Shown: in pieces, positions 7,061-7,555 of the stretch | Position numbering within the stretch: the first letter of the stretch is position 1 | Layout: every line of letters begins with the position of its first letter | Notes under the pieces: generated by a model | Databases searched by the model: none | Told to the model about the DNA's origin: nothing | What the model saw: only the letters and a program-made list of their open reading frames with translations | Source of the DNA: Macrostomum lignano | Lineage: Eukaryota | Direction of reading: 5' to 3' | DNA: 64,000 nt | Assembly: GCA_002269645.1 (NCBI GenBank) | Contig: NIVC01001666.1 | Location: 1-64,000, forward strand | Program-made: the position numbers and the translations under genes

Positions 7061-7555
7061 TCAATTTCGGGGCTTATATACCCTCGACCGAACCACCACA
7101 AACCACCCATCCCACTCCGGGCTCTGTGATTGGCTCTTTCGCAAACATCGCTTGCAGTTCTCACTTAAAACCTCATGGGGTGTAACCTTGAAGACAATGC
7201 TGTGGTGGATATTCATCACTGTTCCCCACCACTTTGCTTCGACACGAATCTCTTCTCGATGACATACAACCATTTTCCCATTGAATGTTTGCGTATTCGG
7301 CTTAAATATCGTAAAGTTATTGTGCTCTGCACTATTCTGGTTCCTTTTTAATTCTGGACAGGTGATTTCTTCTGGAAATCGGAATACCTGCTGTCCGACC
7401 GATCGGTCACAGACTAGTCCGTAGGTCATTTGATTCGACGCAGAGCCTTGCAACTCGGTCTCGGCCCGAACTCCTCCTAGGCTTAAAAGCATGAAGACGA
7501 AAAGGAAAATTATCTTCCATGACCATCGCTCCGCTGTCCGAGGTTTCATTTCCAT
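7061..7555 (-). pseudogene. Truncated herpesvirus-gB-like class III fusion glycoprotein (env)
   Basis: Signal peptide MEMKPRTAERWSWKIIFLFVFMLLSLGGVRA, then LVCDRSVGQQVFRFPEEITCP...IFKPN...VEAKWWG. This parallels HSV-1 gB [21 protein letters not shown]...VFKEN...VSQVWFG (recalled sequence), with identical C-x16-C spacing. The ORF stops after only about 130 aa of ectodomain. Confidence 0.7.
7073..7133 (-). promoter_or_regulatory. Candidate promoter of the PC4-like gene (CCAAT box and TATA box)
   Basis: On the minus strand, CCAAT at 7133-7129 and TATATAAG at 7080-7073, about 50 nt apart and about 105 nt upstream of ATG 6968. Confidence 0.5.

Follow-up and report, generated by a model that had tools for sequence, protein, structure and literature searches.

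A probable 5′ stub of a gB-type envelope gene, likely from a Ty3/gypsy LTR retrotransposon, beside a Maverick-type gene block

The window considered here, that is, the whole stretch of DNA that was analysed (64,000 nucleotides), contains animal-type genes, a block of Maverick-type genes at its left end and, next to this block, a group of reading frames with the appearance of a decayed retroelement. The flanking genes recognised with Pfam include host exons for a SPRY plus RING ligase (14143-14859, reverse strand, -), a TALE homeobox protein (39645-40322, +), an ALK/LTK glycine-rich domain (43304-43660, -) and the thioester-protein (TED) domain of an alpha-2-macroglobulin/TEP protein (59964-63335, -). 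Two AbfB-domain coding stretches at 12008-13092 (+; Pfam E 2e-7 and 7e-5) probably belong to one host gene, and an ORF of the tyrosine phosphatase family (Y_phosphatase3, E 1e-26; 24650-25831, -) is broken in frame by CAGA-type and 17-bp arrays. A 259-nt inverted repeat pair, 96% complementary and with its arms 180 nt apart, gives positions 51881-52578 a MITE-like aspect, and a weak DDE_3 transposase fragment (E 6e-4) occupies 48721-48999 (-). No tRNA or Rfam match was found in the window.

The Maverick block is read from the reverse strand and continues beyond the left end of the window. Its first member is a PC4-domain gene (6276..6968; Pfam PC4 E 4e-8), followed by a Maverick-type integrase with rve and chromodomain regions in two frames (4794..5863; rve E 0.027 and 3.7e-6, Chromo E 8.2e-6), and these two genes hold the only firm profile matches of the block. 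A probable minor capsid gene and a basic core/PW-like gene (3583..4774) gave no profile match and are proposed from their position in the module. The probable major capsid gene (2302..3580, two frames) had no profile or PDB match and is proposed from gene order and motifs, while a probable adenain-type protease (1785..2296, two frames) has its His region in one frame and its Gln/Cys region in the other; the motifs used for these two genes are those that we take to be typical of such proteins. The packaging ATPase (1061..1711) was recognised by its Walker A and B motifs, with a Pfam Pox_A32 match of E 0.09 and a PHROG match of E 7e-4 on the P-loop; its C-terminus appears frameshifted, and a phage tblastn of this gene gave no match. 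The splitting of the integrase, major capsid, protease and ATPase genes across frames may be due either to decay or to sequencing error. The order integrase, minor capsid, PW, major capsid, protease and ATPase matches the Maverick module order int-mcp-pw-Mcp-pro given in the part of PMC8097293 drawn on here, which marks the block, by its gene order, as a presumptive Maverick/Polinton. Three more short Maverick ORFs, PM/PZ-like by position, lie downstream of the ATPase (79-1074, -). They are co-oriented with the capsid module, whereas the layout of vertebrate Mavericks is, according to the same part of that source, mostly head-to-head.

Immediately upstream of the block, where the first-pass annotation of this DNA had placed it, stands the ORF that is the main subject of this work (7061..7555, -; ATG at 7555 in a good Kozak-type context, stop at 7061, 164 aa), referred to below as the env ORF. 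Both the ORF and the peptides quoted in that annotation are present in the sequence, and the position upstream of a Maverick gene block is borne out by the Pfam matches of PC4 and integrase and by the module order. Residues 1-31 (7463..7555) form a predicted signal peptide or internal signal sequence, in which a basic N-region precedes a single stretch of strong hydrophobicity (residues 15-25; Kyte-Doolittle 3.1) that ends in G-V-R-A. Signal-peptidase sites follow the -3/-1 rule, with which this ending is consistent, and the N-terminus thus fits a predicted cleavable signal sequence, as had been proposed earlier. A second hydrophobic segment is missing from the ORF, the best 19-residue window past residue 40 reaching 0.53. 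A fusogen-like N-terminal ectodomain is proposed for residues 32-137 (7145..7462) from a phmmer search of the PDB and from published alignments compared by eye; it has Cys residues at positions 49, 66, 98, 134 and 137, the motif FKPN at 84-87 and one N-glycosylation sequon (Asn80). The earlier count of about 130 ectodomain residues is correct for the length past the predicted cleavage site (133 residues), but only about 105 of these, up to Cys134/Cys137, are fusogen-like, and the last 27 look foreign. The full ectodomain, the second fusion loop and the transmembrane anchor are absent from the 164-aa ORF, and no other env pieces were found in the window by tblastn.

When the env ORF was compared by phmmer with 177,635 PDB sequences, all 13 matches at E<=10 were herpesvirus gB, including entries labelled BALF4 and GP110, which we take to be EBV gB. 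These matches, all of one family and hence not independent, cover approximately residues 14-113, with a best E of 0.023 (none <=0.001) that is owed partly to the signal peptide: after its removal, five of five matches were still gB, with a best E of 0.64. Two other proteins of the window gave no PDB match at E<=10 in the same kind of search, and neither did residues 78-140 of the env ORF alone. As in gB of HSV, PRV and EBV, a Cys-x16-Cys spacing, an F-K-x-N strand and a Trp-aromatic-Gly loop follow each other in register. From Cys49 onwards, the alignment places Trp109-Trp110-Gly111 (7223..7231) opposite the WFG of alphaherpesvirus gB, which we take to be fusion loop 1, and these three residues are therefore the predicted fusion loop 1 of the env ORF. 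Unlike alphaherpesvirus gB, the env ORF has an extra Cys pair (Cys98/Cys134) in its fusion domain, the first position of which faces a Tyr there. The fragment would correspond to the first eighth or so of a protein of gB length, and it stands outside any herpesvirus context; a herpesvirus insertion was considered and rejected, as the window has no other herpesvirus gene and gag lies in frame.

Broader searches with the env ORF were negative. No match was found in Pfam, PHROGs or NCBIfam, and no usable one in the ESM Atlas; the only two phmmer matches among 1.84 billion representatives were repeat-inflated artefacts unrelated to fusogens. A word-based search against longer proteins (up to 2,000 aa) yielded no true relative among 84 candidates, a GTDB scan confirmed none of 15 pattern matches, and an exact look-up found none of ten window proteins. 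The single-sequence fold (pLDDT 33) was too poor to use, and the lack of a Foldseek match at E<=0.001 in the PDB or BFVD is uninformative and should not be counted as a negative. These high E values and the lack of a family match could be read as a chance resemblance, the ORF being a secreted peptide or meaningless. Such a reading is scarcely credible, given that all 18 matches of the two PDB searches were gB, in register and over the same region, that the motif spacing fits the Env proteins discussed next and that the ORF sits at the published position of env (PMC13524379, in the parts drawn on here).

Closer parallels are offered by the errantiviruses, a name that follows here the operational definition of Chary and Hayashi (eLife 2026, PMC13524379), whose paper is cited throughout for its element lists, its table and part of its alignments. 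Among the errantiviruses with an HSV/gB-type Env, the C2-type Env of Nematoda and Bryozoa comes closest. The comparison was made by eye on the domain I-II alignments of supplementary file 2 of that paper, using part of its 230 rows, and counts were taken from 17 Nematoda C2, 10 Bryozoa C2b and 6 Schmidtea rows. An Asn-x10-Cys spacing, corresponding to Asn87/Cys98 of the env ORF, was seen in 17 of the 17 Nematoda C2 and 8 of the 10 Bryozoa C2b rows, and the stricter pattern [FY][KR]PN-x10-C in 4/17, 4/10 and 0/6 (Schmidtea) of them, respectively; the env motif is thus unlike that of the six Schmidtea C1a sequences. Across all six frames of the window, the strict pattern is present a single time, and 16 of 200,000 shuffled versions of the env protein contain it; this shuffle count overstates its significance, since the pattern was written after the window had been seen. 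After the aromatic-Gly loop, the second Cys follows 33-34 residues on in the published Env rows and 36 in the env ORF, so that the Asn-x10-Cys spacing, the aromatic-Gly loop and a second Cys some 33-36 residues further on are shared with errantivirus Env. Rhabdovirus G also invites comparison: in the VSV and sigmavirus rows of the alignment, the Cys-His, the W-aromatic-G loop and the E-x-C-K spacing resemble residues 98-135 by eye. Nevertheless, the env ORF had no PDB match to rhabdovirus G at E<=10, and its N-terminal segment is gB-like.

Because the PDB matches are to gB only and the Asn, Cys and aromatic residues are spaced as in errantivirus Env, the two taken together, the env ORF is very probably a fragment of a gB-type class III fusogen. 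The identification made in the first-pass annotation, a gB-like class III fusogen fragment including fusion loop 1, is thereby upheld, on gB-only though weak PDB matches and on WWG facing WFG. Its kinship needs an amendment, as the family is that of gB while errantivirus Env bears the strongest resemblance by eye; the fragment would then stand closer to the Env of retroelements than to the gB of herpesviruses.

The DNA upstream of the env ORF is in agreement with such an origin. A retrotransposon Gag-like ORF (7727..9058, -; first ATG at 8623, 298 aa) consists of a helical capsid-like region followed by an RG/N/Q-rich tail. The best ESM Atlas matches of the helical region are of the Retrotrans_gag type (0.92, 0.91 and 0.91), a level that 4-10 of 100 shuffled proteins also reach, and in Pfam only PNMA appears (E 0.12). 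The single-sequence fold (pLDDT 44) was too poor to use, Foldseek and VIA results were uninformative, and a word-based search among proteins of up to 2,000 aa gave no true relative among 1,153 longer or 360 similar-length candidates. Upstream of the first gag ATG, 145 very acidic, A-rich open codons lack a start codon (8624-9058, -) and represent either a lost or non-AUG N-terminal Gag extension or an A/G-rich leader.

Gag and env share one frame and are one stop apart (7727..7729, -). Past this stop, a 57-codon linker remains open in the same frame (7556..7726, -), into which the RG-rich Gag tail runs on and which leads straight into the env signal sequence; in 20,000 base shuffles, it stayed open 587 times. 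In the nematode elements described by Sacco and colleagues, gag, env, pro and pol reportedly form a continuous frame, which would match the shared frame seen here. Unlike in those elements, one stop stands here between gag and env. Env is reported to precede pol in these nematode endogenous retroviruses (Sacco et al. 2022, J Gen Virol 103:1739), as it does in the GAG-ENV-POL order.

About 710 nt upstream of the gag frame lies a primer-binding-site-like 11-mer (9772..9782, -), complementary to the 3′ end of tRNA-Arg(UCG/UCU). It is unique in the window, was present in 1 of 100 window shuffles and matches, at 11 of 12 nt, the tRNA-Arg ends priming 11 published elements (PMC13524379); the match was scored against the tRNA ends of those elements, from which the host tRNA-Arg may differ. 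Since the published table offers well over 100 tRNA ends, an 11-mer would arise by chance in the upstream 1.6 kb with an estimated probability of 0.03-0.07. In that table, the tRNA-Arg type is present in annelid F-type elements, and the site found here differs from that of Mlig_errantivirus_2. Beyond it, a possible 5′ LTR (9783..10660, -) is suggested by a TATA-like box (10253) that precedes a CT-rich tract; no second copy was found in the window, and the lack of an LTR pair is to be expected if the 3′ end is lost. A 16-bp tandem array of about 69 copies (10662-11734), the unit of which occurs nowhere else in the window, lies directly upstream of the putative LTR. A second primer-site-like stretch (10555-10538, -) is two mismatches away from a tRNA end that we presume to be of the initiator type. 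This end figures in the 'others' list of PMC13524379, and the stretch could be an alternative LTR end further upstream or lie within the LTR.

These reading frames might also belong to an element of another LTR superfamily, Bel/Pao-like as Tas is, or to a non-autonomous element that never had pol. DUF1759 is typical of Bel/Pao Gag, and it is found on 22% of the members of one Atlas match set for gag; moreover, gB-like Env is also known in Bel/Pao elements, and the window contains no pol. Against this, the top Atlas matches of gag are of the Retrotrans_gag, Ty3_capsid and PNMA types, and the Cys/His knuckles that Bel/Pao Gag has are absent from the Gag tail here. Gag directly before env is, in addition, the published Ty3/gypsy layout (PMC13524379), and env is itself cut, so the same break explains the loss of pol. 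For these reasons, an origin from another superfamily or from an element always devoid of pol is improbable.

Synonymous positions offer a further comparison. At four-fold sites, A is found in 23 of 54 cases in env (0.43), 55 of 123 in gag (0.45) and 219 of 849 in 12 Maverick ORFs (0.26); env differs from the Maverick ORFs (p 0.011) and not from gag (p 0.87). A codon model gave env +15.3 bits toward gag and the env tail -7.7 bits on 25 codons, and was negative for 10 of the 12 Maverick ORFs and positive for two. The model is noisy (the two halves of gag, tested against each other, scored -2.0 and +3.9 bits), Lys/Glu/Gln codons fail to separate env from Maverick (p 1.0), and two Maverick ORFs reach the combined A level of env within 0.02. 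Overall, the synonymous-site bias of env modestly follows that of gag, and the codon bias of its tail leans to the Maverick side.

These observations bear on whether the fusogen could be a gene of the Maverick itself, with the Gag-like ORF as a separate neighbour. The comparison is with MFUS-1/PC1, likewise a gB-like fusogen with a signal peptide located beside Maverick genes (bioRxiv 10.1101/2022.07.12.499685; PMC10748475, in the parts drawn on here). The env ORF is co-oriented with the first Maverick gene, only 93 nt away, has its own ATG in good context and stands upstream of the integrase, where vertebrate Mavericks hold accessory genes and nematode Mavericks cargo genes; the MFUS-1 sequence stood outside the comparison, so that gB likeness as such cannot separate the two origins. 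Yet env shares the gag frame through an open linker and a continuing RG-rich tail, its synonymous-site bias follows gag, although modestly, and, whereas MFUS-1 is an intact, conserved Maverick gene of 866 aa with a membrane anchor, env is a stub of 164 aa in frame with gag, the tail of which covers presumed promoter boxes. Ownership by the Maverick is consequently as improbable as the Bel/Pao origin, and the association between fusogen and Maverick implied by the first-pass annotation gives way to one with the Gag-like ORF, in frame behind which env lies, and with the primer-binding-site-like site.

The transition between the two sets of genes can be located rather closely. The fusogen likeness stops at Cys134-Cys137, near residue 137, and the last 27 codons form a non-homologous tail (7061..7144, -) that overlies a CCAAT box (7133), a G-rich tract and a TATA box (7080); the two boxes lie 165 and 112 nt before the ATG of the PC4-domain gene. 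We infer a junction at approximately 7145-7135, after which the ORF would look like read-through into foreign DNA, its tail probably being the promoter of the PC4-domain gene. Past the break, in the G/T-rich stretch that follows, no env continuation was recognisable with confidence in other frames. Two positions were considered for a Maverick terminus and rejected: the junction, which has no terminal motif and only 177 nt to the PC4 ATG, and 9903, which offers one (AGT)2, a feature present in 3,719 of 5,000 shuffles. Pfam detected no RT, RNase H or PolB in the 15 ORFs left of 9058, nor in 150 of the 155 low-repeat ORFs of at least 70 aa right of 9000 (292 in total before the repetitive ones were set aside, together with five overlapping host genes).

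A junction of this kind might also be an assembly chimera and not a biological deletion: at least four of the Maverick genes are divided between frames, an effect that indel errors in long reads would have as well, and the window is rich in tandem arrays. On the other hand, env and gag are without frameshifts up to the junction, which itself lies outside the tandem arrays, and a chimera would leave the identity of the env fragment unchanged; this explanation is considered highly unlikely. Neither a second LTR nor pol nor a transmembrane anchor was found in the window, and frameshifts affect several of the Maverick genes, so that env is a dead relic and not a working fusogen. Its product, devoid of the trimer helix, the second fusion loop and the membrane anchor, would therefore be unable to fuse membranes, and this copy would yield at most a short secreted or degraded peptide.

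The succession primer-binding-site-like site, Gag-like ORF, in-frame linker, signal sequence and gB-like N-terminus corresponds to the first two thirds of the published GAG-ENV-POL layout. In the lists of PMC13524379, the elements of Nematoda, Bryozoa and Platyhelminthes have only gB-type Env, in the order GAG-ENV-POL, and gag is likewise followed directly by a signal sequence and a gB-like Env. Gag followed by Env being this layout, the most likely owner of the fusogen is a truncated Ty3/gypsy element and not the Maverick; the env ORF can thus be regarded, with good confidence, as what remains at the 5′ end of the env gene from an LTR retrotransposon of the Ty3/gypsy type, ordered GAG-ENV-POL. 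A flatworm origin is compatible with the gag-env order. Nine flatworm elements are listed, from Macrostomum lignano, Prostheceraeus and Schmidtea (Mlig_errantivirus_2, Pcro_1/2 and Smed_1-6; PMC13524379), and the surprise that the first-pass annotation attached to the fusogen is reduced accordingly, gB-carrying Ty3/gypsy elements having already been reported from flatworms. The copy described here differs from the listed errantiviruses in being cut after about 137 Env residues, in having neither pol nor an LTR pair and in abutting a Maverick. Given that its primer-binding-site-like site is not that of Mlig_errantivirus_2 and its motif not that of the six Schmidtea sequences, its family is probably outside the list of PMC13524379; the rows compared were without the Mlig and Pcro Env sequences.

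The ancestor of this Ty3/gypsy copy would have been transcribed from its LTR into an RNA primed by tRNA-Arg, its Gag would have built the particle, and pol would have come after env. Directed to the ER by the signal sequence, Env would have formed a trimeric class III fusogen with a Trp-Trp-Gly loop that may have inserted into the target membrane and allowed the particle to enter neighbouring, probably germline, cells; cell entry is described as unproven for gB-carrying elements (PMC13524379). For the production of Env, a gag-env-pol polyprotein with an internal signal sequence is somewhat favoured because of the shared frame and the continuing RG tail, and the less favoured route would be initiation at its own ATG, which has a good context and lies 11 nt downstream of a pyrimidine tract ending in AG. 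Subsequently, a copy would have landed in or beside the accessory zone of the Maverick, and deletion or recombination would have taken away the greater part of env together with the whole of pol and the 3′ LTR, so that Env residue ~137 came to adjoin the promoter of the PC4-like gene. Insertion into the Maverick followed by deletion and chance fusion of two neighbours are both plausible, the former because the retroelement lies upstream of the integrase, the site of accessory and cargo genes.

In the part of PMC10748475 drawn on here, the existence of enveloped Mavericks in hosts other than nematodes is described as an open question, and no report of a Maverick fusogen in flatworms was found in the openly accessible papers searched. 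An errantivirus captured in the cargo zone of a non-nematode Maverick, with sister Mavericks carrying env intact and spreading with it, is a speculative and, in our estimation, very unlikely scenario. If true, this capture would be a second, independent gain of a fusogen by Mavericks, and would show a route from retroelement env to Maverick by which the nematode MFUS-1 may have arisen; the present finding would gain in importance only if, in other copies, env accompanies the Maverick. On the preferred Ty3/gypsy reading, the locus adds one decayed, probably unlisted family to the published class of envelope-carrying retrotransposons, and it serves as a warning that a fusogen beside Maverick genes need not be a Maverick gene.
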